Origin: Escherichia coli
GTDB lineage: Bacteria > Pseudomonadota > Gammaproteobacteria > Enterobacterales > Enterobacteriaceae
Strand: one strand, 5' to 3'
Assembly: GCF_024700885.2 (NCBI RefSeq)
Contig: NZ_CP117016.1
DNA: 64,000 nt
This document shows positions 1-19,692 of this stretch, piece after piece. How positions within the stretch are numbered: the stretch's first letter is position 1; every line of letters begins with the position of its first letter. Both the position numbers and the translations under genes were made by a program. The notes beneath the pieces were generated by a model, which did no database searches, had not been told where the DNA came from, and saw nothing but the letters and a program-made list of their open reading frames with translations.

Positions 1-276
1 GCCATCGTGGAAGAACATGTCATCCAGCAGGGCACCATAATCCGGCTCGCTGATTTGCGAGCTGGCCTGCATCGCTTTCGAGGTCAGGCCGATTTTGTGG
101 CCTTTCAGCGTACGGCCTTCGGCAATTTTCAGGCGGACCCATTCGCGCTGTACGGCGTAGGCATCTTCGATGGTGATCTCCGGGTAATCCAGCGAGATCG
201 CGCGGATCTGTTCACGCTGTTTTTCTGCCTGATCCAGACGCTGGGCGATCAGGGTGTGGGTGTGTTTATCGAACAT
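1..276 (-). CDS. hpaH: 2-oxo-hept-ene-1,7-dioate hydratase HpaH, N-terminal part (gene runs off the window start)
   Basis: Minus-strand ATG at 274-276 translates [20 protein letters not shown]...; sits directly downstream of hpaF in the conserved hpa operon order. The listed plus-strand ORF 7..351 is its antisense shadow. Confidence 0.75.
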
Positions 277-343
277 GGCGATATCCTGTGGCATTGCCGG
301 ATGCGGCTGCGCCTTATCATCCGGCCTGGAAGCTGGTGCAAAT

Positions 344-724
344 TTATTTAAACAACGCGTGTACGTTGTTCTGTTTGAAATTCAACGTCGGGTGCAGCTC
401 TGCAATCTCAAATGAAAGCGCCAGGTAACGGCTCTCCATCAGTGAGGCGAAGTGCGTTTTAATCAGATCAAACAGCATTTCGCCCACTTTCTGACGGCTT
501 TCCAGACTGCGCCCGCTGCCGATTTTTAGCGTCATATGCACAAAGGCGTAATCGTGCTTGCCATCAGCCATTTGCCAGGTATCGATCCAGTGTGCCCGGC
601 TACGTATTCCCCCAAGCGGAAAAATCCCCGTCGCCGCCAGTGCGGTGTTAACACTGGCAAACAGCTCAGGTAAGCGGGCTTCTTGACGAATATTTTCAGT
701 ACATTCCACGATAAAGTGCGGCAT
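344..724 (-). CDS. hpaF: 5-carboxymethyl-2-hydroxymuconate delta-isomerase
   Basis: 126-aa ORF ([14 protein letters not shown]...) of CHM-isomerase size, ATG start, in hpa operon context. Confidence 0.85.
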
Positions 725-733
725 GGTGGTTCC

Positions 734-1585
734 TTACGCGGGAAGCGGGAAAACAGCGTTAACCTGACCAGTACCGGAGCTTGGGAACAGCTCGGTAATA
801 AACTCCACCTTGCCGTCGTATTTATCCCAGCCGAGCATCCCCAGCAGCATCACCGTGTCGTGCATATTGCCTTCGCCGTAGCAGTAGTCGGCGTACTCCG
901 GCAGCATATTGCAGAACTCTTTGAACTGGCCTTCGCGCCACAGCTTCACCACGCGCTCGTCCATCTGGCGGTCGAACTCGCGGGTGTAGCTGTTCATCCC
1001 TTCTTCTGCACGCTGATCGTCAATAAAGCGGTGCGATAACGAACCGCTGGCAAGGACCGCCACGGTACCGTCGTACTGTTCGATCGCTTTCAGAATCGCT
1101 TCGCCCAGCTTGCGGCTGTCGGCAAAATCGTGAACCGTGCAGAAAGCCGAAATGGAGACCACTTTGAAGTGCTTGTCTTCATTCATGTAGCGCATTGGCA
1201 CCAGCGTGCCGTATTCCAGTTTCAGGCTGGGAATATTGTGCGCTTTTGCCCGCACGCCGAGTTTTAAGGCTTCATCGGCAATAAGCTGCCCCAACTCCGG
1301 GTTGCCCTCGTAGTTGTAGGTCATGTCACGAATAAAATGCGGCAGCTCGTTACTGGTGTAGACGCCTTCAAAATGGTCTGCACAGTTGATGTGATAAGCA
1401 CTGTTGACCAGCCAGTGGGTATCGAAAACGATAATGGTATCGACGCCCATTTCCCGGCAACGCTTGCTGATCTCTTTATGCCCGTCGATCGCGCCCTGGC
1501 GGCAACCGTGGTTTTTCCCTGGCAGTTCAGAGAGATACATCGACGGTACGTGCGTGATCTTGGCGGCTAACGCTAACTTACCCAT
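734..1585 (-). CDS. hpaD: 3,4-dihydroxyphenylacetate (homoprotocatechuate) 2,3-dioxygenase
   Basis: 283-aa ORF (MGKLALAAKITHVPSMYL...), extradiol dioxygenase size and operon position. Confidence 0.88.
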   Translation of the reverse strand: MGKLALAAKITHVPSMYLSELPGKNHGCRQGAIDGHKEISKRCREMGVDTIIVFDTHWLVNSAYHINCADHFEGVYTSNELPHFIRDMTYNYEGNPELGQLIADEALKLGVRAKAHNIPSLKLEYGTLVPMRYMNEDKHFKVVSISAFCTVHDFADSRKLGEAILKAIEQYDGTVAVLASGSLSHRFIDDQRAEEGMNSYTREFDRQMDERVVKLWREGQFKEFCNMLPEYADYCYGEGNMHDTVMLLGMLGWDKYDGKVEFITELFPSSGTGQVNAVFPLPA

Positions 1586-1586
1586 A

Positions 1587-3053
1587 TCAGACTCCCCATT
1601 TCGGAATTGGATGGTCGCCCATGGAAATGCAGACGTTCTTCATTTCCGCGAACACTTCGAAGCTGTACTCACCGCCTTCACGCCCGGTGCCGGAGGCTTT
1701 TACGCCGCCAAACGGCTGGCGCAGGTCGCGCACGTTCTGGGTGTTGACGAACACCATGCCTGCTTCAATGCCACGCGCCAGGCGTAACACTTTGCTGACA
1801 TCCTGCGTCCAGATGTACGATGCCAGGCCGTACTCCACGTCGTTTGCCAGGCGTAAGCCTTCGGCTTCGTCTTTAAACGGCAGCAGGCAGGCGACCGGCC
1901 CGAAAATCTCTTCCTGGGCGACGCGCATACGGTTATCTACGTCTGCCAGCACGGTTGGGCGCAGGAAGTTGCCGCCTTTCAGATGTGCAGGCAGGTCAGA
2001 CGGTTTATCCGGGCCGCCCGCCAGCAGGGTTGCGCCTTCTTCAATGCCGAGACGGATATAGCCAGAGACTTTTTCCCAGTGCTGCTGGCTGATAAGCGCC
2101 CCAACCTGGGTATTCGGATCGTTCGGATCGCCCACGCGCAGACGGTTGGCGCGTTCGGCAAAGCGTTTAACGAATTCCGGGTAGATGCTTTGCTGAATAA
2201 AGATGCGCGAACCGGCGGTGCAGCGCTCGCCGTTGATCGAGAAGATGGTGAACAGGGCAGCGTCCAGCGCGCGTTCAATATCGGCATCTTCAAAAATCAG
2301 CACCGGCGATTTACCGCCCAGTTCCATGGAGTATTTTTTCAGCCCGGCGTTTTTCATGATGTTGCGCCCGGTGGCCGTACCGCCGGTGAACGACACGGCA
2401 CGTACGTCATGATGACGAACCAGCGCATCGCCTGCGGTTGCGCCGTAGCCCTGTACCACGTTCAGCACGCCCGCCGGAATACCGGCTTCCAGCGCCAGCT
2501 CACCCAGGCGGTCAGCGGTCAGCGGGGAGAGTTCCGACATTTTCAACACCGCGGTATTGCCCAGCGCCAGACACGGCGCGACCTTCCATGTGGCGGTCAT
2601 AAACGGCACGTTCCACGGCGATACCAGCGCACAAACGCCTACCGGTTGCACCAGCGTGTAGTTGAGCATCTTGTCGTCAACCGGATAGGTCTTGCCGTTC
2701 ATCTGCTGGCAGACTTCCGCGAAAAATTCAAAGTTGTGAGAAGCGCGTGGGATCAACACATTTTTGGTCTGATGGATTGGCAGGCCCGTGTCAGCGGTTT
2801 CCATCGCGGCGATCTCAGGCACGTTCTGGTCGATCAGATCGCCCAGACGGCGCATCAGGCGCGCACGCTCTTTCATCGGCAGATTGGCCCATTTCGGGAA
2901 CGCCTCTTTCGCTGCCGCTACCGCCTGATTGATCTCCGCTTCACCGCCAGAGGCCACATCCGCCAGCACTTCACCCGTTGCCGGATTGGTGGTCTGGAAG
3001 TAGTCGTTACCTGCAACATTTTTGCCGTTGATCCAATGATTTACTTTTTTCAT
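1587..3053 (-). CDS. hpaE: 5-carboxymethyl-2-hydroxymuconate semialdehyde dehydrogenase (NAD-dependent aldehyde dehydrogenase)
   Basis: 488-aa ORF with aldehyde dehydrogenase hallmarks (ELGGKSP; catalytic Cys in GERCTAGSR); 4-nt overlap with hpaG. Confidence 0.9.
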   Translation of the reverse strand: MKKVNHWINGKNVAGNDYFQTTNPATGEVLADVASGGEAEINQAVAAAKEAFPKWANLPMKERARLMRRLGDLIDQNVPEIAAMETADTGLPIHQTKNVLIPRASHNFEFFAEVCQQMNGKTYPVDDKMLNYTLVQPVGVCALVSPWNVPFMTATWKVAPCLALGNTAVLKMSELSPLTADRLGELALEAGIPAGVLNVVQGYGATAGDALVRHHDVRAVSFTGGTATGRNIMKNAGLKKYSMELGGKSPVLIFEDADIERALDAALFTIFSINGERCTAGSRIFIQQSIYPEFVKRFAERANRLRVGDPNDPNTQVGALISQQHWEKVSGYIRLGIEEGATLLAGGPDKPSDLPAHLKGGNFLRPTVLADVDNRMRVAQEEIFGPVACLLPFKDEAEGLRLANDVEYGLASYIWTQDVSKVLRLARGIEAGMVFVNTQNVRDLRQPFGGVKASGTGREGGEYSFEVFAEMKNVCISMGDHPIPKWGV

Positions 3054-4339
3054 TTCGCTGTTTCCTCACTCACAATTCGGTTCACCAGGCGGCCCACGCC
3101 TTCTACTTCCACTACTACTTCATCGCCAGGCACCACGTCAGATAAGCCTTTTGGTGTGCCGGTGGCGATCATGTCGCCCGGATTCAGGGTCATAAATTCG
3201 CTTAAGTAGGCGATCAGGAAGGGCACGCTGAAGATCAGATCGGCGGTGGTGCCTTTCTGGCGTAACTCGCCGTTGACGAAGGTGCGAAGGGTCAGATTAT
3301 GCGGGTCCGGGATCGCCTCTTTCGGCACGATGGTTGAAAGCATCGGCGTCAGTCCGTCGCGGCTTTTTACCCGCAGGTTAGGGCGGTAGTAGTTTTCCAG
3401 ATAGTCGCGAATGGCGTAGTCGTTACACACGGTGTAGCCCGCGACATAATCCATAGCATCGGCTTCGCTGACGTTACGCGCCTGCTTGCCAATCACCACC
3501 ACCAGCTCCGCTTCGTAGTGCATATACTCAATATTGTTCGGGCGCACGGAGGTCTGGTTATCGCCAGTGAGGGTATTCGGCGCTTTCAGGAACACCAGCG
3601 GTTCTTCCGGTGGCTTAAATTCCAGTTCGCTGGCGTGGTCGGCGTAGTTCAGGCCGAGGGCAAACAGCGTGCCGTGCGGGTGTGGCTGCGTTGGGAAGCT
3701 CTTGCGCGTGGTCACTTCACGTTCGTCCACTACCGGATTTTCCAGTGGCGGGAAACCTTCAGCGAGAACACGAACGCGATCGCCTGGCTGTATTTCCACG
3801 CGCGCCTGTGGCGTGCCGAGCAGAATGGCATCGCCTGGATTCAGCGTGGCAAATTCGCTCAGAGCGCTCAGCAACTGCGCGGCATTACGTTGTAAATCGG
3901 CGGTGTTCCAGTGATCGGCAGGACGTCCGTTGATCTCGGTATAGATGGTCAGATTATCGACATTGCTGAGAGCCACGGTTTCGCCAATGGGGCAGAATCC
4001 ATCACGACATTTTGCTTTGATTGCCGGGCGGTAAAAGCTCTCTTCCGGCAGGCTGACGTCGTTAGCCAGCGCATATCCGGCGATGTACTCTGCTGCATCT
4101 TCTTCACGTACTTTCGTCGCCGTTTTTCCCACAATCAGCGCAACAGTCGCACCGCTCAGTACCTTTTCACCCTGTGGAAAGGGAATCGGTTCACCGCAAC
4201 CAATCACCGTATTGCGCGGTTTAATAAACCAGACCGCAGTTTTAGGCGGGGCTTTGTAGGGGGATTGCTGGAACGCTTCCTGCCATGCATCAAGTTGGCT
4301 GCGATGGTTCAACGCTACGGCGAAGATAGTGCCTTTCAT
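3050..4339 (-). CDS. hpaG: bifunctional OPET decarboxylase / HHDD isomerase (FAH-family tandem domains)
   Basis: ORF 3050..4345; ATG at 4339 is preceded by GAGGAG and gives 429 aa (MKGTIFAV...); two FAH-like repeats are visible in the translation. Confidence 0.88.
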   Translation of the reverse strand: MKGTIFAVALNHRSQLDAWQEAFQQSPYKAPPKTAVWFIKPRNTVIGCGEPIPFPQGEKVLSGATVALIVGKTATKVREEDAAEYIAGYALANDVSLPEESFYRPAIKAKCRDGFCPIGETVALSNVDNLTIYTEINGRPADHWNTADLQRNAAQLLSALSEFATLNPGDAILLGTPQARVEIQPGDRVRVLAEGFPPLENPVVDEREVTTRKSFPTQPHPHGTLFALGLNYADHASELEFKPPEEPLVFLKAPNTLTGDNQTSVRPNNIEYMHYEAELVVVIGKQARNVSEADAMDYVAGYTVCNDYAIRDYLENYYRPNLRVKSRDGLTPMLSTIVPKEAIPDPHNLTLRTFVNGELRQKGTTADLIFSVPFLIAYLSEFMTLNPGDMIATGTPKGLSDVVPGDEVVVEVEGVGRLVNRIVSEETAK

Positions 4340-4345
4340 TACCAC

Positions 4346-4610
4346 TCCTCGGATTCGATCATCTTAATCATTAATATGTTAATGATTACTTTTATTCCCG
4401 ATTGCGTAGTTTGGCAAAAGTAAGTGATGTAAATGTGATCTAATTAACAAACTATTTACATTTAAAGATAATAAAATATTAAATATCAGTAAGTTAACAA
4501 AACATGCTCAATTTTGATAAAATGAAGAATTGCAGGGGCAGCGCAGTCCCGGTAACGTGATGATTAACTGTTTCTATATTAATGATTTTGAATTTTTCAG
4601 GGGGAAGATA
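4346..4610. promoter_or_regulatory. divergent hpaG / hpaR intergenic control region (AT-rich)
   Basis: 265-bp AT-rich spacer between divergently oriented hpaG operon and hpaR; promoters and operator are expected here but not mapped. Confidence 0.45.
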
Positions 4611-5057
4611 ATGCACGACTCACTAACCATTGCGTTGCTCCAGGCGCGAGAAGCGGCGATGAGTTATTTTCGCCCAATCGTTAAACGGCATAATTTGACA
4701 GAGCAACAGTGGCGCATCGTGCGTATTCTGGCGGAAAGCCCATCAATGGATTTTCACGATCTGGCGTATCGCGCCTGCATTTTGCGCCCAAGCCTGACCG
4801 GGATCCTCACGCGGATGGAACGCGACGGTTTAGTGTTGCGATTAAAGCCGATCAATGATCAGCGGAAGCTCTATATCTCGCTGACCAAAGAGGGGCAGGC
4901 CCTGTATAACCGCGCTCAGACACAGATTGAAGAAGCCTATCGGCAGATTGAAGCTCAGTTTACTGCCGAGAAAATGCAACAGTTAACCCATCTGTTAGAG
5001 GAATTTATTGCTCTGGGTAATTCCCGACAAGAAGACATTCCGGGCGATAATGAATAA
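4611..5057 (+). CDS. hpaR: MarR-family repressor of the hpa meta-cleavage operon
   Basis: ATG at 4611 after GGGGAAG; 148 aa (MHDSLTIALLQAREAAMSYF...), MarR-like winged-helix size, divergent from hpaG. Confidence 0.85.
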   Translation: MHDSLTIALLQAREAAMSYFRPIVKRHNLTEQQWRIVRILAESPSMDFHDLAYRACILRPSLTGILTRMERDGLVLRLKPINDQRKLYISLTKEGQALYNRAQTQIEEAYRQIEAQFTAEKMQQLTHLLEEFIALGNSRQEDIPGDNE

Positions 5058-5175
5058 CTTTTTAGTATCTGATAACCAGCATCTGGTTTTTCCATGGATG
5101 GCGGGTTACACCTTTTCATAAAGTTTTTGCTTTCCAGGCCGAAAATCTTGCATCGGTCCACAGGAAAGAGAAACC

Positions 5176-6840
5176 ATGTTAAAACGTATCAAAATTGTGA
5201 CCAGCTTACTGCTGGTTTTGGCCGTTTTTGGCCTTTTACAACTGACATCAGGCGGTCTGTTCTTTAATGCCTTAAAGAATGACAAAGAAAATTTCACTGT
5301 TTTACAAACCATTCGCCAGCAGCAATCCACGCTGAATGGCAGCTGGGTCGCGTTGTTGCAGACGCGTAACACCCTCAACCGCGCGGGTATCCGCTACATG
5401 ATGGATCAGAATAATATTGGTAGCGGTTCAACCGTTGCTGAGCTGATGCAGAGTGCCAGTATTTCGCTGAAACAGGCGGAAAAAAACTGGGCGGATTACG
5501 AAGCGTTGCCGCGTGACCCGCGTCAGAGCACCGCCGCAGCGGCAGAGATCAAACGTAATTACGATATTTATCACAATGCGCTGGCGGAGCTGATCCAACT
5601 GTTAGGTGCAGGCAAAATCAACGAGTTCTTTGATCAGCCGACCCAGGGATATCAGGACGGTTTCGAGAAGCAGTATGTGGCTTACATGGAGCAAAACGAT
5701 CGGCTCTATGATATCGCCGTCAGCGATAATAATGCCTCCTACAGCCAGGCGATGTGGATTCTGGTGGGCGTGATGATCGTCGTACTGGCGGTCATCTTCG
5801 CCGTCTGGTTCGGTATTAAAGCCTCGTTGGTAGCGCCAATGAATCGCCTGATTGACAGCATTCGTCATATTGCAGGCGGCGATCTGGTGAAACCGATTGA
5901 GGTGGATGGCTCTAATGAGATGGGGCAACTGGCAGAGAGTTTGCGCCATATGCAGGGAGAGCTGATGCGTACCGTCGGTGATGTGCGCAACGGGGCCAAT
6001 GCCATTTATAGCGGTGCCAGCGAAATCGCTACCGGCAATAACGATCTCTCTTCGCGCACCGAGCAACAGGCCGCTTCGCTGGAAGAGACGGCAGCCAGCA
6101 TGGAGCAACTGACCGCAACGGTGAAACAGAACGCCGAGAATGCGCGCCAGGCCAGCCACCTGGCGTTAAGTGCTTCTGAAACGGCGCAACGCGGCGGCAA
6201 AGTGGTAGATAACGTGGTGCAGACTATGCGCGATATCTCCACCAGTTCGCAGAAAATCGCCGATATTATCAGCGTAATTGACGGTATTGCCTTCCAGACC
6301 AATATTCTGGCTTTGAACGCGGCGGTTGAAGCAGCGCGCGCGGGTGAGCAAGGGCGCGGTTTTGCGGTGGTCGCGGGCGAAGTGCGTAATCTGGCCCAGC
6401 GCAGCGCCCAGGCGGCTCGCGAAATTAAAAGCCTGATTGAAGACTCGGTGGGGAAAGTGGATGTTGACTCTACGCTGGTCGAAAGCGCCGGGGAAACAAT
6501 GGCGGAGATTGTCAGTGCTGTGACCCGCGTGACGGACATTATGGGCGAAATAGCTTCTGCTTCTGATGAGCAGAGCCGTGGTATCGATCAGGTTGGCTTA
6601 GCGGTCGCTGAGATGGACCGGGTAACTCAACAGAACGCTGCGCTGGTGGAAGAATCTGCCGCTGCCGCCGCCGCGCTGGAAGAGCAGGCCAGTCGCCTGA
6701 CCGAAGCTGTGGCAGTGTTCCGGATTCAGCAACAGCAGCAACATCAGCGTGAAACATCGGCTGTGGTAAAAACCGTGACGCCAGCTGCGCCGCGTAAAAT
6801 GGCCGTAGCAGATAGCGGGGAGAACTGGGAAACGTTTTAA
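5176..6840 (+). CDS. tsr: methyl-accepting chemotaxis protein I (serine chemoreceptor)
   Basis: 554-aa ORF with N-terminal transmembrane segment, HAMP region, highly conserved MCP signalling domain and C-terminal NWETF pentapeptide. Confidence 0.92.
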
Positions 6841-6851
6841 TCGCCATAAAA

Positions 6852-6881
6852 ATGCCCGATAAGCAAAATGTTATCGGGCAT
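6852..6881. terminator. hairpin between convergent tsr and lgoT
   Basis: atgcccgataa...ttatcgggcat inverted repeat; the T-run lies on the minus-strand side, so mainly the lgoT terminator. Confidence 0.55.
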
Positions 6882-6888
6882 AGGGAGT

Positions 6889-8250
6889 TTAATCTTTACG
6901 CGGGTCGTTGATCGGCTGACGAACCAGGAAGATGTACGCCAGTGCCCCCGCTGCGGTGACGCAACCGCAGATGATTAGTGCCAGACGGAATGAGTGGGTG
7001 GTATCAACAATAAAACCAGTAATGATCGGCGCGAAAGAGGCGCAGATGAAGCTGGCAAAGTTCTGGATACTGCCCACCGACGCCGTCATGCGAGAAGCAA
7101 CTGCGACGTGGATCAAGCCCCAGCAGGATGTTCCGGCAAAGTGAATACAAAACAGTGCCATGCCAATCAGCAGAACCGCTGTCATGGATGTTGTCGCTTG
7201 CGGTACGACCAGCGTAAAGGCGGCAGAACAGAACATCCCGGCAATAATGCAGATCTTACGGCTTTTAATCGGAGCCATTCCCCCTTTGACCAGCCAGTCG
7301 GTAACGTAACCGTTGACCAGCATCCCGGCAGCCCCAAACAGGAAAGGGATAGCAGCCATCAATCCTGTGCTTTTTAAATCCAGGTTATAGGCTGTTTGCA
7401 GGTAACCAGGAAGCCAGGCCAGATACAGCCACGCAGTGTAGTTGATGCCACTGAATCCGAGCATCATTCCCCACATTGTGCGGTTACGGAACAGGCTGCG
7501 CCATTCGGCAAAACTGAGCGGATCTCGGCGGGCATTGACGCTACCTGCATTGAGATAAGCTTGTTCAACGGCAGTCAGTTCTACGTGCTCGCGGTTGCGA
7601 TAGAGCATATACCAGCCGATGGCGAGAAAAATCCCCAGTACACCAATGGTAATAAACATCCCGCGCCAGCCCATCACCAGCATCATCGCCGCCAGAATCG
7701 GTGGGCTTACGGCAACGCCAATGGTAGAAGCTGCGTTGAAGAAGCCCATCGGGCGTCCGCGCTCTTTGATGTTGAACCAGTCGTTAATGACTTTTACACC
7801 GCATGGGTTCATCGGCGCTTCACCAATCCCCATACCGATACGCACCAACACGAACTGCGTAAAGCTGTGAACCATGCCAGACATTGCCTGGAACAGTGAC
7901 CAGAAGAACATCCCCAGTCCCAGCATCAGGCGTGGGCCTTTACGATCCAATAGTGGGCCGCAAGGAAGTTGCGCAATGCCGTAAGCGAGTGAAAACACGG
8001 AGAGCAAAGCGCCGATTTCGGTGGCACTTAATCCCAATTCTTCACGAATTGTTAAATTTGCTACCGACAGCGAACTGCGGTCGAGATAATTGATTACCGC
8101 CGCAAAAAATAATAACAACATGGCGGTGGTTTGAATGCGTTTAATTCGGGTGCTGCGTTGAACTAATCCATCTGGTGGCACGGGAATATCTGCCGACGAA
8201 GATGGAGTAAATGAAGAACGCGGATCGAGGGTGATATTTTCTTTTTCCAC
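6889..8250 (-). CDS. lgoT: MFS transporter (L-galactonate transporter)
   Basis: 453-aa multi-TM ORF (MEKENITLDPRSS...), apparent GTG start; K-12 gene order tsr-lgoT-lgoR-lgoD. Confidence 0.85.
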   Translation of the reverse strand: MEKENITLDPRSSFTPSSSADIPVPPDGLVQRSTRIKRIQTTAMLLLFFAAVINYLDRSSLSVANLTIREELGLSATEIGALLSVFSLAYGIAQLPCGPLLDRKGPRLMLGLGMFFWSLFQAMSGMVHSFTQFVLVRIGMGIGEAPMNPCGVKVINDWFNIKERGRPMGFFNAASTIGVAVSPPILAAMMLVMGWRGMFITIGVLGIFLAIGWYMLYRNREHVELTAVEQAYLNAGSVNARRDPLSFAEWRSLFRNRTMWGMMLGFSGINYTAWLYLAWLPGYLQTAYNLDLKSTGLMAAIPFLFGAAGMLVNGYVTDWLVKGGMAPIKSRKICIIAGMFCSAAFTLVVPQATTSMTAVLLIGMALFCIHFAGTSCWGLIHVAVASRMTASVGSIQNFASFICASFAPIITGFIVDTTHSFRLALIICGCVTAAGALAYIFLVRQPINDPRKD

Positions 8251-8464
8251 GCCGGACTCCTGTATTTATAATTTTAATTGTTTACGTAATTGTGCATTAC
8301 GCAAGGTTGACATTAACGGCAGGTTAAAGTTTTAGGACTTTACTACCGCTCACAAAAACATTTTTAGTCGACTGATTGTGAGCATAGGTAAGCGGGAATT
8401 TCCCGGTATTTATCTTTTGATAAAACCGTGCACCCGCTAATAGTTTGCTGTTTTTAATCCGTAC

Positions 8465-9379
8465 TTAATGAGCATAACGCGTGTTCTCATTAATGGATCG
8501 AATCATTGATTGTTTAGCTGAATTCAAATGGTTACGGAGCGCAAGGGTGGCATCCAGGTCACTGCGGCAAATCAGAGCACTGAGAATGGTCATATGTTCA
8601 TCGACGGCAATGATATTGCGCTGTTTAAGATCGCTTTCGTCCCATTGATAGTGAAAATGAAAGATGACTGAGATGATCTCAAGCGATTGATCAAAAAAGA
8701 TATTGTCGGCAGCTGAAAGCAGTAAGGAGTGAAAATCTCTGTCAAGTTGCGAGAACATGCGAAAGCTATTGCCGATGTTGTCACGCAGTAGCCGATGACG
8801 TTCGAGCATGGTTTTCGCCTGCAGCCAGCGAGGATCATGATCAGGCAGGTTGAGAAAGTGCTGAAGTGAATGAGTTTCGAGCATTTCGCGTAGCTCAAAC
8901 AGCTGCTCAGCGTAGGATTGATCGAATTGCTTCATGCTCCACTGGCCGCGCTTTTCGCTTTGAATAAGATTATAACGGCCGAATTTTAAAAGATATTCTC
9001 TTACTACAACCGGGCTGACACCCGCGGCCCGAGCCAGTTGCAGTTCAGAAAAAGTTTCCCCAGGGCGTAACTGGCGCTGGTTTATCATCGTGAAAAAAGC
9101 CTGCTCAAACACTTTGTTTTGTTCACTCATTGAAGCGGTAGTACAGGCGAAACCGTCATCATGGTCAGGTTTACGCGCAATAACATAGTCGTTTCCAACC
9201 TGCGTTAAGACGCCGCATTCGCGTAAGTGGCTGAGAATATGACGCACTGTAGTGCGGCTGATGTTGTACATTTCCGCCAGCGCACTTTGCGATGGAAGTG
9301 GGGAAGGGATATGACCCCGCGCCATATCATCAATGACCTGGTTAATCACATTGTGGCGTAAATTTTGTGAACGACTCAT
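8465..9379 (-). CDS. lgoR: GntR-family transcriptional regulator of L-galactonate catabolism
   Basis: 304-aa ORF with N-terminal HTH (MYNISRTTVRHILSHL), AGGAGG RBS before the ATG. Confidence 0.85.
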   Translation of the reverse strand: MSRSQNLRHNVINQVIDDMARGHIPSPLPSQSALAEMYNISRTTVRHILSHLRECGVLTQVGNDYVIARKPDHDDGFACTTASMSEQNKVFEQAFFTMINQRQLRPGETFSELQLARAAGVSPVVVREYLLKFGRYNLIQSEKRGQWSMKQFDQSYAEQLFELREMLETHSLQHFLNLPDHDPRWLQAKTMLERHRLLRDNIGNSFRMFSQLDRDFHSLLLSAADNIFFDQSLEIISVIFHFHYQWDESDLKQRNIIAVDEHMTILSALICRSDLDATLALRNHLNSAKQSMIRSINENTRYAH

Positions 9380-9517
9380 ATTTTCCTCCTTGTGAGCCCA
9401 TTAAAACCCGATTTAAAACATTTTTATGCGTGTGTTTTCACAAAACAGATTTTCCGTTCCGCTGCCATTTTTCATTTTCATTGATATCTAAGGCAACAAA
9501 AAATGGAGAGCCGAATC

Positions 9518-10540
9518 ATGTCTACGATGAATGTTTTAATTTGCCAGCAGCCGAAAGAATTAGTCTGGAAACAACGCGAGATACCTATTCCGGGTGACAA
9601 TGAAGCATTAATAAAAATTAAGTCAGTCGGCATTTGTGGTACCGATATTCATGCCTGGGGTGGGAATCAACCATTTTTTAGTTATCCACGCGTTTTAGGC
9701 CATGAAATATGTGGGGAGATTGTTGGGCTGGGTAAAAATATTGCAAATCTTAAAAATGGACAGCAAGTAGCGGTGATCCCTTATGTTGCCTGTCAGCAAT
9801 GCCCGGCGTGTAAAAGCGGGCGTACCAATTGCTGTGAAAAAATTTCAGTCATTGGCGTGCATCAGGATGGCGGTTTTAGTGAGTATTTGAGCGTGCCGGT
9901 GGCGAACATTTTGCCCGCAGATGGTATTGACCCGCAGGCGGCAGCATTAATTGAACCTTTCGCTATTAGCGCTCATGCGGTGCGTCGCGCAGCCATTGCT
10001 CCCGGCGAGCAGGTGCTGGTGGTCGGGGCGGGGCCAATCGGTCTGGGCGCGGCGGCAATCGCTAAAGCCGATGGCGCACAGGTGGTGGTGGCGGATACCA
10101 GTCCGGCGCGCCGTGAACATGTGGCAACGCGTCTGGAATTACCTGTACTGGACCCGTCAGCCGAAGATTTTGACGCGCAGCTGCGGGCGCAGTTTGGTGG
10201 TTCGCTGGCGCAGAAAGTGATCGACGCGACAGGTAATCAACATGCGATGAATAACACCGTGAATCTGATTCGTCACGGCGGCACGGTGGTATTTGTCGGT
10301 CTGTTTAAAGGTGAGTTGCAGTTCTCCGATCCGGAATTCCATAAAAAAGAAACGACGATGATGGGTAGCCGCAACGCCACGCCGGAAGATTTCGCTAAAG
10401 TCGGTCGACTGATGGCGGAAGGGAAAATCACTGCCGACATGATGTTAACCCATCGCTATCCGTTCGCCACGCTGGCAGAAACCTACGAGCGCGATGTGAT
10501 TAACAATCGTGAGTTGATTAAGGGTGTAATTACTTTCTGA
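9518..10540 (+). CDS. lgoD: L-galactonate 5-dehydrogenase (Zn-dependent alcohol dehydrogenase family)
   Basis: ATG at 9518 (MSTMNVLICQQ...) gives 340 aa; GHE...GxVxxVG Zn-ADH motifs and Rossmann GAGPIG. Confidence 0.85.
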   Translation: MSTMNVLICQQPKELVWKQREIPIPGDNEALIKIKSVGICGTDIHAWGGNQPFFSYPRVLGHEICGEIVGLGKNIANLKNGQQVAVIPYVACQQCPACKSGRTNCCEKISVIGVHQDGGFSEYLSVPVANILPADGIDPQAAALIEPFAISAHAVRRAAIAPGEQVLVVGAGPIGLGAAAIAKADGAQVVVADTSPARREHVATRLELPVLDPSAEDFDAQLRAQFGGSLAQKVIDATGNQHAMNNTVNLIRHGGTVVFVGLFKGELQFSDPEFHKKETTMMGSRNATPEDFAKVGRLMAEGKITADMMLTHRYPFATLAETYERDVINNRELIKGVITF

Positions 10541-10566
10541 TAAGGCGAGATTATTAAAGTTGCCAT

Positions 10567-10602
10567 GCAGCGTCCGGGGAAGTGTTGGGCGCTGTTTTTT
10601 TT
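10567..10602 (+). terminator. rho-independent terminator downstream of lgoD
   Basis: GC-rich hairpin (cagcgtccgggg...gggcgctg) followed by T8. Confidence 0.6.
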
Positions 10603-10635
10603 GTTTCTTAATAGTGTGTTGTAAGCCGGAGAAGG

Positions 10636-10665
10636 CGTGTAGGTCGCACCTTATGCGACCTACAC
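10636..10665. repeat. REP-like palindrome
   Basis: gtaggtcgca-ccttat-gcgacctac palindrome in the lgoD/opgB intergenic region. Confidence 0.5.
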
Positions 10666-10677
10666 ATCAGTCAGGAA

Positions 10678-12969
10678 TTACCCTTCACGTTCTACCACTT
10701 TAATTTCCACCATGCCGATCCCGAGCTTACGCGGCGAGTGTCCGAGGATATTCCCTTCGTTGGTTGAGACAGGTTCCGGCGGCACAATTACCAGCGTGTC
10801 GGCATCGGTTGGGTTATCGAAATGCAGCGTGGTGGTGGTCACTTCATTGCCCAGCACAAGAGTTTGTTCTTCATTGCCTACGCGTACCGGAATAGGACGG
10901 CTGGCGTTATTGCCGTATGCTTTGGCGGTAATCACCAGGTCAAATTTCTTCGGCAGCGGATGCTTGTACTCGATTTTTACTTCGTCGCCCAGTTGCGCGT
11001 TGGACCAGCGGCCCCACGACTCCGGACGGGAAATCCCGCTAAACTGTTTCACCTCTTCTGGCGCACCGGCGACGTTAAAGATGAAACTGTCGGCTTTGTA
11101 GCGAATATCGTTATCAACAATCTTCAGCGTATCGACATTGCCTTTGTAACGCGCCATGTCGATGACCGTATCTTTAAATGCCGTTTTGCCCTTCCACATT
11201 GTTTTATCAACATGCTGGACAATTTGCTGACCGCCAAGCTGCCCTTGCGAGACACACCAGTCGGTGGAGAGTGCCAGTTCCGGAGCCCAAAGTTGTGCCA
11301 TCTTGTAGCAACGGTCAACCCAGACGAAATTGTCGCGTGGAGCGAAATCGGCCAGCTGGAAACGCAGCGGTGCTGAGTATTCGCTTTCCGGCAGCGGTTC
11401 CACGCGTTTGTCTGAAACCCGCAACAGCAGCGGCAAACGGAAATGGCTACCCGAGAAGGCAATCATGTTTTTCTGCTGGTCGATGGTGAACTCTTTCATC
11501 TCTTTAGGGAATTTCCACAGGCGGATGATATCCGGCTTCCACGCCAATGTTTTCTCTTTGATATTGAGGAAGATTTCCGACATTGACTGCCCGGATAAAC
11601 TGCTACGACCAAGTCCGAGATAGTTATCGCCACCGAGAATGTCCAGCACCGTCGCGCCGTTATCCATCGTGTTACGCTTCACCGCCAGCGTCTCTTGCTG
11701 CGGCTTGTCGCCACGGATGACAAAAAACAGGTTATTGCGATCCTGTTTATTAAGGTATTTCCACGCCGTGTTGTTCATCGCTAAATGGTCAGAAGAGACG
11801 ACGATGACGGTATCTTTAAACCACGGTGACGCTTTGATTTTGTTGATAAACGTCGCGATATTCTCCTGGCTGCAACTTACCGCGCTGAATGACTGATTCG
11901 GCTTACCGTCAAAATCATATTTTTTGCGGTTACAGGTACGCGAGATAAAACCATCCGGGTGATGGGTATCGACTGTCAGGGTAAACAGTGAGAATCGCTG
12001 ACCTGAGCGGGAAAGCTCTTCAAACTTTTTCCACGCTTCATCGAGAACGGTATCGTCGTAGAATCCCCAGTCGTTGCGATAGTGCGGGTCGGCTACCACG
12101 CTTTTCAGCTCTTCTGAGCCGTATAAGTGGTCGAAGCCATGCGACTTCAGGAACACATCTTTACCGGCAAAACGCAGATTTGCGCCCTGCACGAAATAGT
12201 TCTGATAACCCGAGTTTTTCAGGATATCTCCCAGACAGATGTTCTGCGGGAAGAAGCTGGAGACAGAGGCGGAGGCGTTGCCTTCAAAGGGGGCAAACAG
12301 CGGTATGCCGCACTGAGAAGCCACCATGCCCGCAATCGTGTAATCCGTTCCTGGCAGCTGCTGCGTGTGGCTGAAATCCAGGCCTTCATTTTTCAACGCG
12401 CCCAGTTCAGGCGTGAGATCCGGGAAAGCCTCGTTATCAAAATAGGTCCGCTCGAGACTTTCGCCGTAGATATAAACCAGGTTGAGTTTCGGGTCAGGGA
12501 TAGTTTTCGACGGCTCTTTATAATAAGCCGCAAAGTCCGGGTCGCCGTCGCGTGACTGGGATTTCACTAGTTCCGTTATCTGACGAAATGCCGGGCTGGC
12601 ATCCACTGAACCCAGCGCCAGTAAGAGTGCCAGCAGGCTGTAACCAAAATGGTGCGGATGATGGCGACGACGGCGCAGGATCCAGCCCAGCGCACCGAAC
12701 ACCGCCGTCAGCCCCAGCACAATGCCGATACCAGGCAGGATGTATTTACTGACACCAGCACCGGTCAGGCTGTTGGTTAAGGTATAGAGAACCGCGTCGT
12801 TAATACCATCGCCAGTAAAATAGTCGCTGGCAAACAGGGTGATATTTAAAACGACAAATAGCCCCAGTACCGTTAATGTGGCTGCAAACCACCAGGTGTT
12901 ACGTCCCGCTTTCCATGCGTAAATCAGCACAGAGGCGAGAAAAAGGGCGAAAGAGAGTAGTTCTGACAA
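10678..12969 (-). CDS. opgB: phosphoglycerol transferase I (osmoregulated periplasmic glucan biosynthesis)
   Basis: 763-aa ORF ([10 protein letters not shown]..., first codon TTG) with N-terminal TM segments and sulfatase-like domain. Confidence 0.9.
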
Positions 12970-13221
12970 CGGGCGATCCTCACTAAACCGGGCCGTTTAG
13001 CCAACGTTTAAGCTTTTTGAGAAGCACAATGTAATGGCGTCGCCATATTGCTGCAATTCTAGTGTCAAAAAAATGCGATGTTGTTAGGAATTAGTTTATA
13101 AACAGACTTTTTTGATTACGGTCGCTTCCCGTGTAACAGGGGAAAACCGTCCAGGAGCAGGGAAAAGGGCAGGAGAGAGCCGCGTCAGCCGGGTAACAGC
13201 TAAAACGCGGCGTTTCGCGGT

Positions 13222-13719
13222 TCAGGAAATGAAGTTCAGCCCCTGCTTTAACACCAGATCGCAGGCTTTGGTTTTCACCTTTTCTGCCAGCGGAGTCGTT
13301 CCGATATTATCCAGATTGAGTTGCTGACCATCTTTAGTTTTCAGCAACCCCTGAATGCCATCCAGATAATTGGTGTCTTCTTTTTGCTCTTCACTGTTCA
13401 GGCCCAGTTTTTCCAGTACCTGATTCTTGATGTTTTCGGCATCGGTTACCGAAGCCAGCTTTTGCTTCGCGCAGTATTGCAGAATGCCTGCGGCATTGTT
13501 CATGTTATCTGCGCTTAAGGCCTGGTTTCCGCTGCTAAGCAAGTTAGTTAATGACGCGAGCGACCAACCGCCTTCCTGTGTCGTGCTGTTTTGGTTGCCA
13601 AGTTCGCTGGCGGCGCTGGAGAGCGCATCTTTCCAGGACGCAGCATGCACCCCGGTGGAAATTAATGCGCTGGCGGCAATGGCACAGCACAGAAGATGTT
13701 TAACAGTTTTCATCATCAT
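13222..13719 (-). CDS. yjjA: uncharacterised secreted protein YjjA
   Basis: ~165-aa ORF with signal peptide (MKTVKHLLCCAIAASALISTGVHA); exact start among the MMM codons uncertain. Confidence 0.7.
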   Translation of the reverse strand: MMMKTVKHLLCCAIAASALISTGVHAASWKDALSSAASELGNQNSTTQEGGWSLASLTNLLSSGNQALSADNMNNAAGILQYCAKQKLASVTDAENIKNQVLEKLGLNSEEQKEDTNYLDGIQGLLKTKDGQQLNLDNIGTTPLAEKVKTKACDLVLKQGLNFIS

Positions 13720-13764
13720 TACTCAAGGTGGAATTGTGTCGCAGTATACCGCCAGAAACGGGGA

Positions 13765-14502
13765 TTAATACTCTTTACCCGTTACCCGGCTACGGTAGCT
13801 ATCCCAGTTGAAGATCACCCACAAACTGTTACCCAGGCGCATACGGTCCATCACGCGTTCGCCCAGCAACTTGGTCATCTCTTCCATATTACTGTTGGTC
13901 AGCATCCCGGTTGGGCGTTTGGAAGAAGAGCGGCGATCGACGATCTGGTTGATGATCACTTTTTCGTATTTCGATTCGGTCTGCACGCCGATCTCATCGA
14001 TCACCAGCAGATCAACGTTGCTCAGATCGTTAAGCAGTTGTTCTTCGCTGGTACCGCTATTCCTGAAGGTATCTTTCATCGCCGACATAATATCGGCCAC
14101 GGTGATGATCAATACGGATTTACCGCGTAGCAGCAGCTCGTTGCAGATTGCCGCCGCCAGATGGTTTTTGCCGGTTCCTGGCTTACCAGAAAAGATGAAG
14201 CTGGCGATGTTGCCGTCAAACTCTTCGACATACTGGCGCGCTTTGCTTAACGCATTCATCTGCCCTTCACACTCAACGCGATAGTTCTCAAAGGAGCAGT
14301 TCTGATGCAGTGGACGAATACCGGAGCGGTTAAAGGTGCGCTGCATTTTCATCGCCCGATTTTCACGTTCGAGAGCGGCGGAGCGGATCGCCCCTTGTTC
14401 TTTCTGCCAGGCCAGTAGTTCTTCACCCGTTTTGAAAGCAGGTTTGATATGGGCAGGCATCATTTTTTGCAGGCGTTGCATCAGGTCGCCAACGTTTTTC
14501 AT
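13765..14502 (-). CDS. dnaC: DNA replication protein DnaC (helicase loader)
   Basis: 245-aa ORF with Walker A GKPGTGKNHLAAA and the DnaC N-terminus. Confidence 0.92.
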   Translation of the reverse strand: MKNVGDLMQRLQKMMPAHIKPAFKTGEELLAWQKEQGAIRSAALERENRAMKMQRTFNRSGIRPLHQNCSFENYRVECEGQMNALSKARQYVEEFDGNIASFIFSGKPGTGKNHLAAAICNELLLRGKSVLIITVADIMSAMKDTFRNSGTSEEQLLNDLSNVDLLVIDEIGVQTESKYEKVIINQIVDRRSSSKRPTGMLTNSNMEEMTKLLGERVMDRMRLGNSLWVIFNWDSYRSRVTGKEY

Positions 14503-14504
14503 CG

Positions 14505-15044
14505 TTACCCTCTGAATCCTGGTGGAATTTGGCTGTCAGGTTCACTGACCGTATTCACATCTCGTTTCGGCAGTCCGCCGTTGCTGGCACGACCGATTTG
14601 CAGGCTGCGCGCCAGTTTTTGTTGCCACTGCACATGGTGAAAGACTTTACCTTCCGCCTGCCAGTAGGCAATGAATGAGGCCAGTTCTTCGGTGGTCACC
14701 GGCTCTCTTAGCGCCACGCCCCATAGCGCCGCCAGGCGGATAAAGTCGGCATCGGGTTGCCAGTCCGGATACATGGCGAATTTCCCCATGGGTACAGCTA
14801 CGGGAGCAGCTTGCGGTTCCTGATAGAGTTGATCGTCCAGAGCGACATCGCTTCCCGGACGCGCCAGCTTTTCTTCCAGCGCCAGCAGTTCAGCCAGGCG
14901 TGCAGGCGTGACGGCATAAAACGCCGGGGCATTGTTAGCAAATACGGCAACCACACCGCCTTCAGCTTTTGCCAGAACGGTTTGGTGATCGTGTACCAGG
15001 GCGTCAATACCAACGACGTCCGGGGTCAAAACTCTGGAAGACAT
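14505..15044 (-). CDS. dnaT: primosomal protein DnaT
   Basis: ATG at 15044 gives 179 aa ([19 protein letters not shown]...); directly upstream of dnaC. Confidence 0.9.
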
Positions 15045-15150
15045 ACTGTTTCTCAAATATGGAACGATGAACGAGAAGGGAGATAACTTTTATAGTAACA
15101 CACGGAGGAGAGGAGGCTGTCTCTCATCCGTGTGCTTAAGCGAGGCAATT

Positions 15151-15624
15151 TTATACGCGAGGGCGCTTGCGGTACAACCATAATCCAGGAATGGAAAGAC
15201 CGATGGATAACGCACCAACAATTGATGAAGCTGTAAGAAAGTTGGTTAACAGGGTAATCATCAACGGTTCGCTGTAACCTAGTTGGCTGATTTTTACCGC
15301 CGAAATCATTGCGGTATAAGCCGATATGCCAGGGAACATAGGAATAACAGCCGCCACGGTAAACACTTTCGGATGCGCCAGATACCAGCGCGACCATTGA
15401 ATACCAATGGTGCCGACCAGCATAGAAGCCATAAAAGTTGACCACTCAATATTCAGCCCGCTGGTCATTAAGATCATTCGGGAACCATGACCTATCGAGC
15501 CAAGCAGCGCACACCAGCGTAACGCCCGCACGGGAACGTTGAACACCATCGCAAAGCCGACCGCAGGAATGGCGGCGAGGATCATATCCTGCGCCAACGC
15601 TAACAGAAATTCGATCACACCCAT
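15151..15624 (-). CDS. yjjB: inner-membrane protein YjjB (ThrE-family companion)
   Basis: 157-aa hydrophobic ORF from the ATG at 15624; overlaps the yjjP 3' end. Confidence 0.8.
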
Positions 15625-16385
15625 CCGCGTAGCCCCCAAATCGTCAGTGCCATCACTACGCCGACGCAGGTAGCCAGTGTCAGCAGACTGGCGATCGCCC
15701 AGCGTGCCAGTCCGGTATTGATGTGGCCTTTAAACATATCGGCGACGGCATTAATCAACGGAAAACCCGGCACCAGCAGCAGAACGCTGGCGGCCATCGC
15801 GATAGTGGGTGTATTGCTGAAAGTGGGAAGTTGCAAAAGCAAACCGGAAATGGTGGTGGCGGCGAAAGCGGTGAGGCAAAAGTTGATCTGTGGATGAAGA
15901 TGACGTTGTGCCAGCAGCTGGCGGATATACATCGCGACCGTACTGGCAAAGAAGGTGATGACGGCACCATCCCAGCCACCTTTATTGAGTTTACAGAAAC
16001 AGGCGCAAGAAAGGCCGACCATTAAGGCTACCAGCCATCTCGGGTAACGTAATGGCTGAATTTGGCTAAATCGTTTCTCTACACCTTTGTAATCCAGCAG
16101 ATGATGCTCCGCCAGAATCACAATGTGCTGGACTTCAGTCACCACATGCATATTAATGCCGCGATCGTGATTTTTTCGTGTCGATGTCAGGCATTGCCCA
16201 TCTTTAATGGTTGTCAGCACTATGGCGTTCGAAGAGATAGAACTTTCGACGCTGTCCATTCCCAGCGCCCGACCCAGTCGTGAGGAAAGCTCATCAACCA
16301 ACGCGCTTTCCGCACCATGTTGCAAAAGAAATAATCCACACTGGATACAAAGCCGTGTTACGGCTCGCTGTTGCTCAGTTTGCAT
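15615..16385 (-). CDS. yjjP: inner-membrane protein YjjP (ThrE family)
   Basis: 256-aa ORF from the ATG at 16385 ([12 protein letters not shown]...). Confidence 0.8.
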
Positions 16386-16448
16386 AACTCGCCCTTTGTC
16401 ATAGACGTGATGCGTATTGTTCAGATAATGAGAATCCATTTGTATCAT

Positions 16449-17003
16449 GAAGCACGGTTGTTTTGCGGTAGGTTAAGATCAAAATTGCGCTGATTAATCT
16501 TGGTTATCAGGAGAAGCTCGGTGATAAAAAGCGAATTATCTCTCGTCGCAAACAAATTATCACATGAATATTATCACTATAATGAATTTATTGTTTAGCC
16601 TTTACGAATCAGGATAAAAGATAACTGGGCGCGTTTTTTAATTTTTACAAGTTAAAACTATCAGATTTTATTGAATAAATATTGATTGTGTGATCCCGCA
16701 TTCTGCGGGAAGGGATATCAGTTAATTATAAATTAAATGAATGAGAATTCTGTTTTTCATTAAGTATTTCTAACAACTTAATGTAGATATTTTAAATGTC
16801 TCCAGGCTATTTCACCAGGTTATCATTTGATGCTAACCTTCTGACACATGCAGTGGAGTTGTTGTGCAGCAGGAGTATGCTGATATGAAAGTGAATGCTA
16901 AGGATAATTTATTCGCTTAATCTATTAATTTGCTGGAAACATTTAAGGAATGAATATCCTGAATAAACCATCATGATTTATAGACAGTGGATGTGGAGGA
17001 AAT
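16449..17003. promoter_or_regulatory. AT-rich yjjP / yjjQ divergent intergenic region
   Basis: ~550-bp, very AT-rich spacer between divergent genes; an H-NS-type silenced promoter region is expected from K-12 knowledge. Confidence 0.4.
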
Positions 17004-17729
17004 ATGTTGCCAGGATGCTGCAAAAATGGAATTGTTATCAGTAAAATACCTGTTATGCAAGCAGGGTTAAAAGAGGTCATGAGGACTCACTTCCCTGAAT
17101 ATGAAATAATATCCAGCGCCTCTGCGGAGGACCTTACCTTATTACAATTACGTCGTTCCGGATTAGTCATTGCTGATTTAGCCGGTGAAAGTGAAGATCC
17201 ACGTTCTGTTTGTGAACATTATTATTCTTTAATCTCACAATATCGGGAAATTCACTGGGTTTTCATGGTGTCACGTTCCTGGTATTCCCAGGCAGTAGAA
17301 TTGCTCATGTGCCCTACGGCGACGTTATTGTCTGATGTTGAACCCATTGAGAATCTGGTCAAGACCGTTCGTTCCGGCAATACGCACGCAGAGCGTATCA
17401 GCGCCATGCTGACCTCTCCGGCAATGACTGAAACTCATGATTTTAGCTATCGCTCCGTCATTCTCACTCTTTCAGAGCGTAAAGTGCTGCGGCTATTAGG
17501 TAAAGGATGGGGCATCAACCAGATAGCTTCATTGCTTAAGAAAAGTAATAAAACTATCAGCGCCCAAAAAAACAGTGCGATGCGTCGACTGGCAATTCAC
17601 AGCAACGCTGAAATGTATGCATGGATAAATAGCGCGCAGGGTGCAAGAGAACTTAACTTGCCTTCTGTTTATGGAGATGCCGCAGAATGGAACACAGCCG
17701 AATTAAGAAGAGAAATGTCGCACTCATAG
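17004..17729 (+). CDS. yjjQ: LuxR-family transcriptional regulator YjjQ
   Basis: 241-aa ORF with C-terminal LuxR-type HTH. Confidence 0.85.
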
Positions 17730-18364
17730 AAAAATGCGTCATGAGTAGTATCGGTATTGAGAGTTTATTCAGAAAGTTTGCGGGTAACCCTTATAAGCTC
17801 CATACCTATACCAGTCAGGAGTCATTTCAGGATGCCATGTCGCGGATCTCGTTTGCGGCGGTCATTTTTTCTTTTTCTGCCATGAGAAGTGAGCGCAGAG
17901 AGGGATTATCATGCCTGACTGAACTGGCGATTAAGTTCCCGCGTACCCGGCGTTTAGTTATTGCGGATGATGATATTGAAGCTCGGCTGATTGGTTCATT
18001 GTCGCCATCACCGCTGGACGGTGTATTAAGTAAAGCGTCAACGCTGGAGATTTTTCATCAGGAACTCTTTTTGTCATTAAATGGTGTACGTCAGGCGACC
18101 GACCGACTGAACAATCAGTGGTACATTAATCAAAGCCGAACGCTAAGCCCGACGGAGAGAGAAATATTGCGCTTTATGTCGCGTGGCTACTCAATGACAC
18201 AAATTGCCGAGCAGCTTAAACGCAATATCAAAACGATCCGTGCACATAAATTTAATGTGATGTCGAAACTGGGCGTCAGTTCTGATGCAGGGTTGTTGGA
18301 GGCCGCAGATATTCTGTTATGTATGCGGCATTGCGAAGCAAGTAATGTGTTGCATCCCTATTAA
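17687..18364 (+). CDS. bglJ: LuxR-family transcriptional activator BglJ
   Basis: 225-aa ORF overlapping the yjjQ 3' end; C-terminal LuxR HTH ([18 protein letters not shown]). Confidence 0.85.
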
Positions 18365-18401
18365 TCCGCATGATGCCGGGTTTACTTCCCCGGCAGTGCT
18401 T

Positions 18402-19190: not shown

Positions 19191-19330
19191 AATCGGGATA
19201 GTAATCTAAATGATAATGATTGCTAATCCTAGCGATAGGTTTACCCGATAGCAAGGGATTTCTCTGGCTTGCAAATGATAAAAATTATCATATGATATTA
19301 GTTATCATTATCAATGAAAGAGATGAAACC

Positions 19331-19567: not shown

Positions 19568-19605
19568 AAAATCAGGGAAGAAACAAGAAAGGAAGTAAAG
19601 ATAAT

Positions 19606-19692
19606 TGGTGCGAGGGGGGGGACTTGAACCCCCACGTCCGTAAGGACACTAACACCTGAAGCTAGCGCGTCTACCAATTCCGCCACCTTCGC
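19606..19692 (-). tRNA. leuV: tRNA-Leu (anticodon CAG)
   Basis: 87-nt minus-strand tRNA: GCGAAGGTGGCGGAATTGGTAGACGCGCTAGCTTCAGGTGTTAGTGTCCTTACGGACGTGGGGGTTCAAGTCCCCCCCCTCGCACCA, with long variable arm and encoded CCA. Confidence 0.95.

Follow-up and report, generated by a model that had tools for sequence, protein, structure and literature searches.

What does an hpa gene cluster beside tsr reveal about the Escherichia coli chromosome that carries it? The question is raised by a 64,000-nucleotide stretch of contig NZ_CP117016.1 (assembly GCF_024700885.2), referred to here as the window, in which genes for hydroxyphenylacetate (HPA) catabolism lie directly upstream of the serine chemoreceptor gene tsr. 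The initial annotation had described them as a catabolic island, i.e., an hpaGEDFH operon with its MarR-type regulator, that is missing from K-12 at this position and that sets a B/C/W-like strain background. We arrived at a different overall account, of which we are nearly certain: the window carries the right half of the chromosomal hpa (hpc) cluster in its classical form, and this cluster is a nonmobile occupant of a slot between btsT (i.e., yjiY) and tsr, the contents of which are most likely swapped by recombination in the flanks. The cluster, its absence from K-12, and its site beside tsr have been known since the 1990s. Its function and regulator are also known, and RefSeq annotates all of the window genes correctly, so that the initial annotation was right to call the finding not novel.

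Gene content upstream of tsr

Gene identities were assigned with NCBIfam equivalog models and their curated cutoffs (in bits), and every complete open reading frame (ORF) scored above its cutoff over the full length. The minus strand carries the order G-E-D-F-H. hpaG (positions 3050 to 4339) encodes a bifunctional isomerase/decarboxylase of 429 amino acids (aa) with two FAH-family halves (NF011750, 978.2 bits versus a cutoff of 811), and the N-terminal and C-terminal HpaG domain models were each matched. It is followed by hpaE (1587 to 3053; 5-carboxymethyl-2-hydroxymuconate semialdehyde dehydrogenase, 488 aa; TIGR02299, 739.3 versus 638.35), hpaD (734 to 1585; 3,4-dihydroxyphenylacetate [homoprotocatechuate] 2,3-dioxygenase, 283 aa; TIGR02298 HpaD_Fe, 549.9 versus 315.95), and hpaF (344 to 724; 5-carboxymethyl-2-hydroxymuconate delta-isomerase, 126 aa; NF011605, 262.9 versus 215). 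The last gene, hpaH (1 to 276, 5' part), encodes 2-oxo-hept-4-ene-1,7-dioate hydratase and is cut by the window start. Its N-terminal 92 aa cover positions 1 to 92 of TIGR02312 (E = 1.5e-39), and the fragment remains below the HpaH model cutoff because of this truncation.

On the plus strand, divergent from hpaG and upstream of it, hpaR (4611 to 5057) encodes the MarR-family repressor of the hpaGEDFHI operon (148 aa; TIGR02337, 201.1 versus 121.2); 12 further MarR-family models (MarR/SlyA/OhrR) were matched at lower scores. The hpaR stop at 5057 and the tsr start at 5176 are separated by 118 bp, with both genes in the same direction. tsr itself (5176 to 6840, plus strand; 554 aa; NF011615, 1220.8 versus 947) is a core gene, present in 5,425 of 5,426 complete E. 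coli genomes, and forms the right flank of the slot; lgoT (6889 to 8250, minus strand) lies 3' of it. The window ORFs are thereby confirmed as hpa genes plus hpaR, with matches far beyond chance, and nothing was found that contradicts this identification. The regulator, the gene order, and the position directly upstream of tsr had all been read correctly in the initial annotation, while the extent of the operon had not: the operon is hpaGEDFHI, with hpaI just outside the window.

The remainder of the cluster is visible in E. coli MLI114 (NZ_CP117013.1; human stool, Mali), to which window positions 1 to 8000 are 100% identical. By direct string comparison, the identity extends across positions 1 to 20000, and there is 1 mismatch across positions 18569 to 64000. 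On the identical stretch of MLI114, RefSeq annotates hpaH, an isomerase gene (hpaF), hpaD, hpaE, hpaG, hpaR, tsr, and lgoT. The complete order in MLI114 is yjiA, yjiX, btsT, hpaC, hpaB, hpaA, hpaX, hpaI, hpaH, hpaF, hpaD, hpaE, and hpaG (all on the minus strand), followed by hpaR (plus strand), tsr, and lgoT. The full cluster, from hpaC to hpaR, comprises 11 genes, and the window holds the tsr-proximal half. hpaI, hpaX, hpaA, hpaB, and hpaC lie beyond the left window edge; in MLI114 they are found, along with the complete hpaH, at positions 5937 to 12276 of locus L001. The organization published for the cluster comprises hpaBC, hpaGEDFHI, hpaR, hpaA, and hpaX (PMC7201708).

The hpa cluster as a marker of strain background

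In K-12 MG1655, btsT and tsr are adjacent, with a 377-bp spacer that contains no hpa gene, in agreement with the absence from K-12 that had been claimed. The full cluster occupies the same btsT-tsr position in E. coli B REL606 and in LY180, a derivative of W; the comparison with W and B across the yjiY-tsr interval proposed in the initial annotation thus gave the anticipated picture. These two strains are consistent with the reading that the cluster marks a B/C/W-like chromosomal background. So is the literature, in which B, C, and W are named as HPA-positive laboratory strains that grow on 3-hydroxyphenylacetate (3HPA) and 4-hydroxyphenylacetate (4HPA), while K-12 does not (PMC7201708). The same study proposes that hpa was lost in K-12 (PMC7201708), and B has been described as having hpa where K-12 has paa (PMC3446290).

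The wider distribution of the cluster makes such a background reading extremely improbable. The hpa segment was detected in 2,073 of 5,426 complete E. coli genomes (38%) and was contiguous with tsr-lgoT in 2,069. The hpa allele of the window is 97.6% identical to that of REL606 and 96.3% identical to that of LY180, versus 100% for MLI114, an O7:H15 strain of sequence type 70 (ST70), O166:H15 strains, and a few others; only 15 to 16 genomes reached at least 99%. In a 3-kb comparison of the tsr-lgoT core, the identity of the window to K-12 and to O157 was 98.43% each, with values of 98.40% for B and 98.63% for LY180; the window flank is thus no closer to B than it is to K-12. The identity between B and K-12 over these 3 kb is 99.77%, though B has hpa and K-12 lacks it. 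Given that B and K-12 are so similar in the flank and yet differ in hpa, the presence or absence of hpa varies between close relatives and is therefore no lineage marker. The laboratory strain HB101, a K-12 × B hybrid, also carries hpa.

We conclude that the hpa cluster here shows the slot to be in a state other than that of K-12 and does not by itself indicate a B/C/W-like background; this part of the initial annotation did not stand. For users of the locus as a marker, hpa beside tsr occurs in approximately 38% of complete E. coli genomes and cannot assign strain background. Regarding the phylogroup of the source strain, the literature on ST70 and ST349 is only suggestive, being compatible with D without stating D.

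Occupants and boundaries of the btsT-tsr slot

The label "non-K-12" was apt in that the slot is not of the K-12 type, but it does not denote a single alternative, since the slot has at least four states. A K-12-type short spacer was present in 2,752 genomes, the hpa cluster in 2,069, an O157-type single gene in 363, and a D-amino-acid cluster in 194, which together account for 5,378 of the 5,426 complete E. coli genomes. The further occupants were found via genomes that match the K-12 spacer in part only. Genomes of the O157 type are mostly O157:H7; in O157:H7 ATCC 43890, the slot (L005 14184 to 15063) holds a lone hypothetical gene of 180 aa, and O157:H7 was on this basis ruled out as an hpa carrier. 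The cargo of EC17GD31 (L004 9184 to 15156) comprises five genes, encoding an amino-acid deaminase, an N-acyl-D-amino-acid deacylase, RidA, a sodium:solute symporter, and a MurR/RpiR regulator, and is a putative utilization cluster for D-amino acids/N-acyl-D-amino acids.

Junction alignments located both ends of the variable segment. On the left, the btsT-proximal 183 bp are common to all four slot types and are followed by approximately 60 bp that are more diverged and end, again in all four types, in a TGTGAT-N4-ATCACA palindrome, which looks like a CRP site for btsT. On the right, the end of the hpa-specific segment in the hpaR-tsr spacer (positions 5058 to 5116) cannot be aligned among the four types until CATAAAGT at 5117, where the alignment resumes at CATAAAGTTT...GCCGAAAA in all of them. 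The first sequence common to all slot types is a sigma-28 (FliA)-like tsr promoter, TAAAGTTT-N11-GCCGAAAA (5119 to 5145, plus strand), located 30 bp upstream of the tsr start. It agrees with the sigma-28 consensus, TAAAGTTT-N11-GCCGATAA, at 15 of 16 positions and is kept in the K-12, hpa, O157, and D-amino-acid types. The variable cargo between these ends measures 11,221 bp in MLI114 (L001 5896 to 17116, corresponding to window positions -6104 to 5116). Because the cargo is bounded by the CRP-like palindrome and the sigma-28-like promoter, btsT and tsr would keep their own control signals whatever the cargo.

Homologous recombination within the conserved flanking DNA most likely accounts for the exchange of slot states among strains, with no element-encoded mechanism involved. 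The btsT-tsr slot would then be a tidy but unsurprising recombination hotspot, with four common states that share the same promoter-respecting breakpoints. If this is true, such a promoter-bounded, cassette-like slot might offer a model system for gene exchange via the flanks.

The D-amino-acid and hpa types also have in common the 63 bp after the left anchor, with a GCCCCTTCG...CGAAGGGGC hairpin that differs in its loop. This hints that one of the two types was derived from the other by replacement.

Mobility of the cluster

A presence/absence polymorphism at a fixed site could also arise if the cluster were a mobile genomic island that some lineages had acquired horizontally and that had inserted beside tsr via an element-encoded mechanism. 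The cargo GC content (54.5%) is slightly above that of the flanks (52.8% and 49.7%, i.e., 50 to 53%), and the neighborhood on the yjiA side is variable too (a penicillin G acylase gene in MLI114, hsdR/mrr in K-12, and other restriction genes in O157 and EC17GD31); both observations would suit an island. Most of the evidence runs the other way, and we regard a mobile island as very unlikely. The MLI114 record shows no annotated integrase, transposase, insertion sequence, or tRNA gene within the cargo or next to it, and no direct or inverted repeat of at least 9 bp was found at the two cargo junctions. Neither the GC content of the cargo nor its GC content at third codon positions falls outside the values seen in neighboring core genes, tsr among them (54.3% GC). 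The two breakpoints of hpa are also those of three alternative, unrelated cargos, an arrangement that argues for replacement via the flanks.

The divergence of hpa alleles between lineages (2 to 3.7%) is at least that of the adjacent core genes (1.4 to 1.6%) and therefore fits a long residence in the species. The hpa orthologs of Klebsiella pneumoniae are approximately 85% identical in DNA sequence to those of the window, a level that we infer to be typical of vertically inherited enterobacterial genes. In a search of plasmids, the E. coli matches to hpa were confined to nonmobilizable records of 0.37 to 4.8 Mb, evidently pieces of chromosome or mislabeled records, and no true mobilizable plasmid carriage was found. 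The term "catabolic island" can consequently be retained in a loose sense but not in the strict sense of a mobile island, for which mobility genes, end repeats, and a clear GC deviation are missing. We favor the view that hpa is a long-resident, nonmobile block, the presence or absence of which is shuffled by homologous recombination in btsT and tsr.

Several points weigh against this overall account. The slight GC richness of the cluster relative to its flanks is compatible with an old foreign origin. The direction of change could go either way: an ancestral hpa cluster may have been lost from strains of the K-12 type, or the cluster may have been acquired at a later time. We looked for a deletion scar in K-12 by local alignment of the 133-bp K-12-specific filler with the whole hpa cargo, with both of its ends, and with the other cargo ends (200 shuffles each), and nothing was significant beyond the shared TGTGA-N6-TCACA palindrome; the filler thus carries no recognizable hpa remnant that would point to gain or loss. 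An outgroup scan of GTDB contigs with a degenerate Tsr N-terminus pattern returned only two loci, namely, one in an hpa-positive E. coli and one in a Citrobacter metagenome-assembled genome with an unrelated Ldh_2-like gene upstream of tsr. Furthermore, growth on 3HPA and 4HPA, binding by HpaR, and the positions of promoters, all considered below, are predictions drawn from homology and from published work on other strains.

Predicted catabolic function

In the HPA pathway, HpaBC hydroxylates 3HPA or 4HPA to 3,4-dihydroxyphenylacetate (homoprotocatechuate), the ring of which is opened by the extradiol dioxygenase HpaD. The resulting semialdehyde is oxidized by HpaE; isomerization and decarboxylation by HpaF and HpaG, hydration by HpaH, and cleavage by HpaI then yield pyruvate and succinic semialdehyde. 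None of the ten minus-strand hpa genes has an internal stop in MLI114, and the hpaR ORF is intact in the window. The HpaB protein of the MLI114 lineage has Arg379. This residue permits the use of 3HPA besides 4HPA, while the Cys379 of REL606 abolishes 3HPA use (PMC7201708). The intact cluster, together with HpaB Arg379, predicts growth on both 3HPA and 4HPA, each as the sole carbon source.

The hpaG-hpaR control region

hpaG (start at 4339, minus strand) and hpaR (start at 4611, plus strand) diverge from a control region that is 271 bp long (4340 to 4610) and AT rich. A promoter/terminator scan of positions 4200 to 5300 found 4 sigma-70-like hexamer pairs on both strands versus 2.3 expected, a result that is not discriminating. 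Approximately 26 bp upstream of the hpaG start codon, the region contains a perfect palindrome, TAATCATTAA-N4-TTAATGATTA (4365 to 4388), i.e., an inverted repeat with 10-nucleotide arms that are 100% complementary across a 4-nucleotide gap. A second, operator-like copy (4564 to 4587) is located just upstream of the hpaR start. It forms a direct repeat with positions 4364 to 4387 (75% identity; start-to-start spacing, 200), and its 12-nucleotide core, ATATTAATGATT, is the exact complement of positions 4366 to 4377.

Two operators have reportedly been described in E. coli W (Galan et al., 2003). In Yersinia pseudotuberculosis, HpaR has two sites of the TTAA-N4-TTAA type, and the authors noted their resemblance to the E. 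coli W sites (PMC7180172). The palindrome and its second copy are of the same type and may be regarded as leads, i.e., as candidate HpaR operators. By analogy with the E. coli W and Yersinia work, HpaR, encoded divergently from hpaG, would repress the hpaGEDFHI promoter via the TTAA-rich palindromes in the 271-bp region and would be released by pathway intermediates.

The region also includes a CRP-like site, TGTGATCTAATTAACA (4434 to 4449), that we treat as a lead only. It is the sole match with no more than one mismatch to TGTGA-N6-TCACA across the 64-kb window, in which the pattern overall is not enriched.

The hpaR-tsr junction

The arrangement of hpaR and tsr raises the possibility that transcripts initiated at the hpaR promoter continue into tsr, such that hydroxyphenylacetate or catechol acids would raise Tsr and couple chemotaxis to catabolism. 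The two genes are codirectional and only 118 bp apart, their spacer lacks a stable hairpin (RNA fold z = -0.48), and no terminator was called downstream of hpaR in the scan of positions 4200 to 5300; moreover, the adjacency is kept in all 2,069 hpa-positive genomes. Tsr reportedly mediates attraction to the catechol acid 3,4-dihydroxymandelate, and read-through, if true, would link chemotaxis with the catabolism of host- and diet-derived aromatic acids. We nevertheless consider the idea very unlikely: tsr retains a sigma-28-like promoter of its own in all slot types, even where the upstream gene is convergent or absent, and a fixed slot suffices to explain the adjacency.

Position 6467 of the window, in tsr codon 431, shows a G-to-A change (GGC to GAC) that results in Gly431Asp in the cytoplasmic signaling domain. 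A 61-bp query around this position had an exact match only in MLI114 among 4,338 matching complete genomes, and all of the others have G. This is a strain-private missense change that could alter serine chemotaxis. Furthermore, Tsr here is the 554-aa form with QQQQQHQ, and the glutamine run is 9 bp shorter in K-12 and B.

Neighboring regions and prophage

Small differences from other strains occur at and around the cluster. The hpaH-hpaF spacer of LY180 (L007 9277 to 9386) is 43 bp longer than that of the window (277 to 343), as is that of many other genomes, in which the segment match splits into two pieces (5,100 versus 5,057 bp); the additional 43 bp are probably a small repeat insertion. 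The gene lgoR is annotated as frameshifted in REL606 (L006 17456 to 18369) and is intact in the strain of the window and in K-12.

On the btsT side, approximately 6.3 to 6.4 kb before the first base of the window, MLI114 (L001 5560 to 5690) has an insertion of approximately 125 bp relative to K-12, O157, and EC17GD31, between the btsT start codon and the upstream region. The insertion carries GTGAATCCCCGGGAGCTTACAACAGTAAG on the reverse strand, which resembles the ERIC/IRU intergenic repeat. As a rule, the match of hpa-positive genomes to the K-12 spacer does not begin before base 19, and the insertion appears to be common among them.

Beyond yjiA lies another variable region. A penicillin G acylase gene adjoins yjiA in MLI114 (L001 1 to 2096), where K-12 has mrr and hsdR, and other restriction or toxin-antitoxin genes are found there in O157 and EC17GD31. 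This region is the known "immigration control region," and pac has been reported to be close to hpa in E. coli W.

At the other end of the window, beyond yjjG, the MLI114 annotation indicates a lambdoid prophage (approximately 23000 to 64000) that runs off the right window end; its coordinates were converted as window = 4527568 - record + 1. The prophage integrase gene (23269 to 24486, plus strand) is next to a gene for a CHAT-domain protein of 710 aa (24620 to 26752, plus strand), which might be a defense or accessory gene. The remaining prophage genes include yfdP/Q/R-like genes and genes for a LexA-family repressor, an antiterminator, lysis, terminase, portal, and tail proteins, and a Lom-family outer membrane protein, with tail fiber genes at the window end. 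The sole base difference between the window and MLI114 RefSeq sequences over positions 18569 to 64000, at window position 39125, is within this prophage.

Comparison with known systems

The closest known counterparts are the clusters of laboratory strains. For E. coli W, the hpa cluster was reportedly described by Prieto, Diaz, and Garcia in 1996 (GenBank Z37980); for E. coli C, Roper et al. reportedly described the hpc genes in 1993. E. coli W, represented by LY180, has the same gene set, order, orientation, and btsT-tsr site as the lineage of the window. Its HpaR, HpaD, HpaH, and HpaE proteins are identical to those of the window lineage, while its nucleotide allele is 96.3% identical over 5 kb and its chromosomal lineage is a different one. 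The counterpart in E. coli B is the cluster of REL606 / BL21(DE3); REL606 has the same 11 genes at the same site, with 98.0% identity over 11.2 kb. The HpaR, HpaD, and HpaH proteins of REL606 are likewise identical to those of the window lineage (HpaD, WP_000516990.1; HpaR, WP_000543916.1; both also in LY180). REL606 differs in HpaB (Cys379 instead of Arg379) and in its flank, which is K-12-like (99.77% identity to K-12 versus 98.40% to the window).

Outside the species, Y. pseudotuberculosis has the same pathway genes and a MarR-family HpaR with two sites in the hpaG promoter region, but its genes form a single operon, hpaG1G2EDFHIXBC, without hpaA (PMC7180172). The site beside tsr was established here for E. 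coli only.

With respect to the slot, E. coli is known for integration or replacement hotspots, in which, as reportedly described by Touchon et al. in 2009, unrelated gene sets alternate between conserved core genes. The btsT-tsr slot resembles these hotspots in its fixed core flanks, unrelated alternative cargos, and lack of mobility genes. It differs from them in being small (0.1 to 11 kb) and in having ends that coincide with the promoter elements of the neighboring genes.

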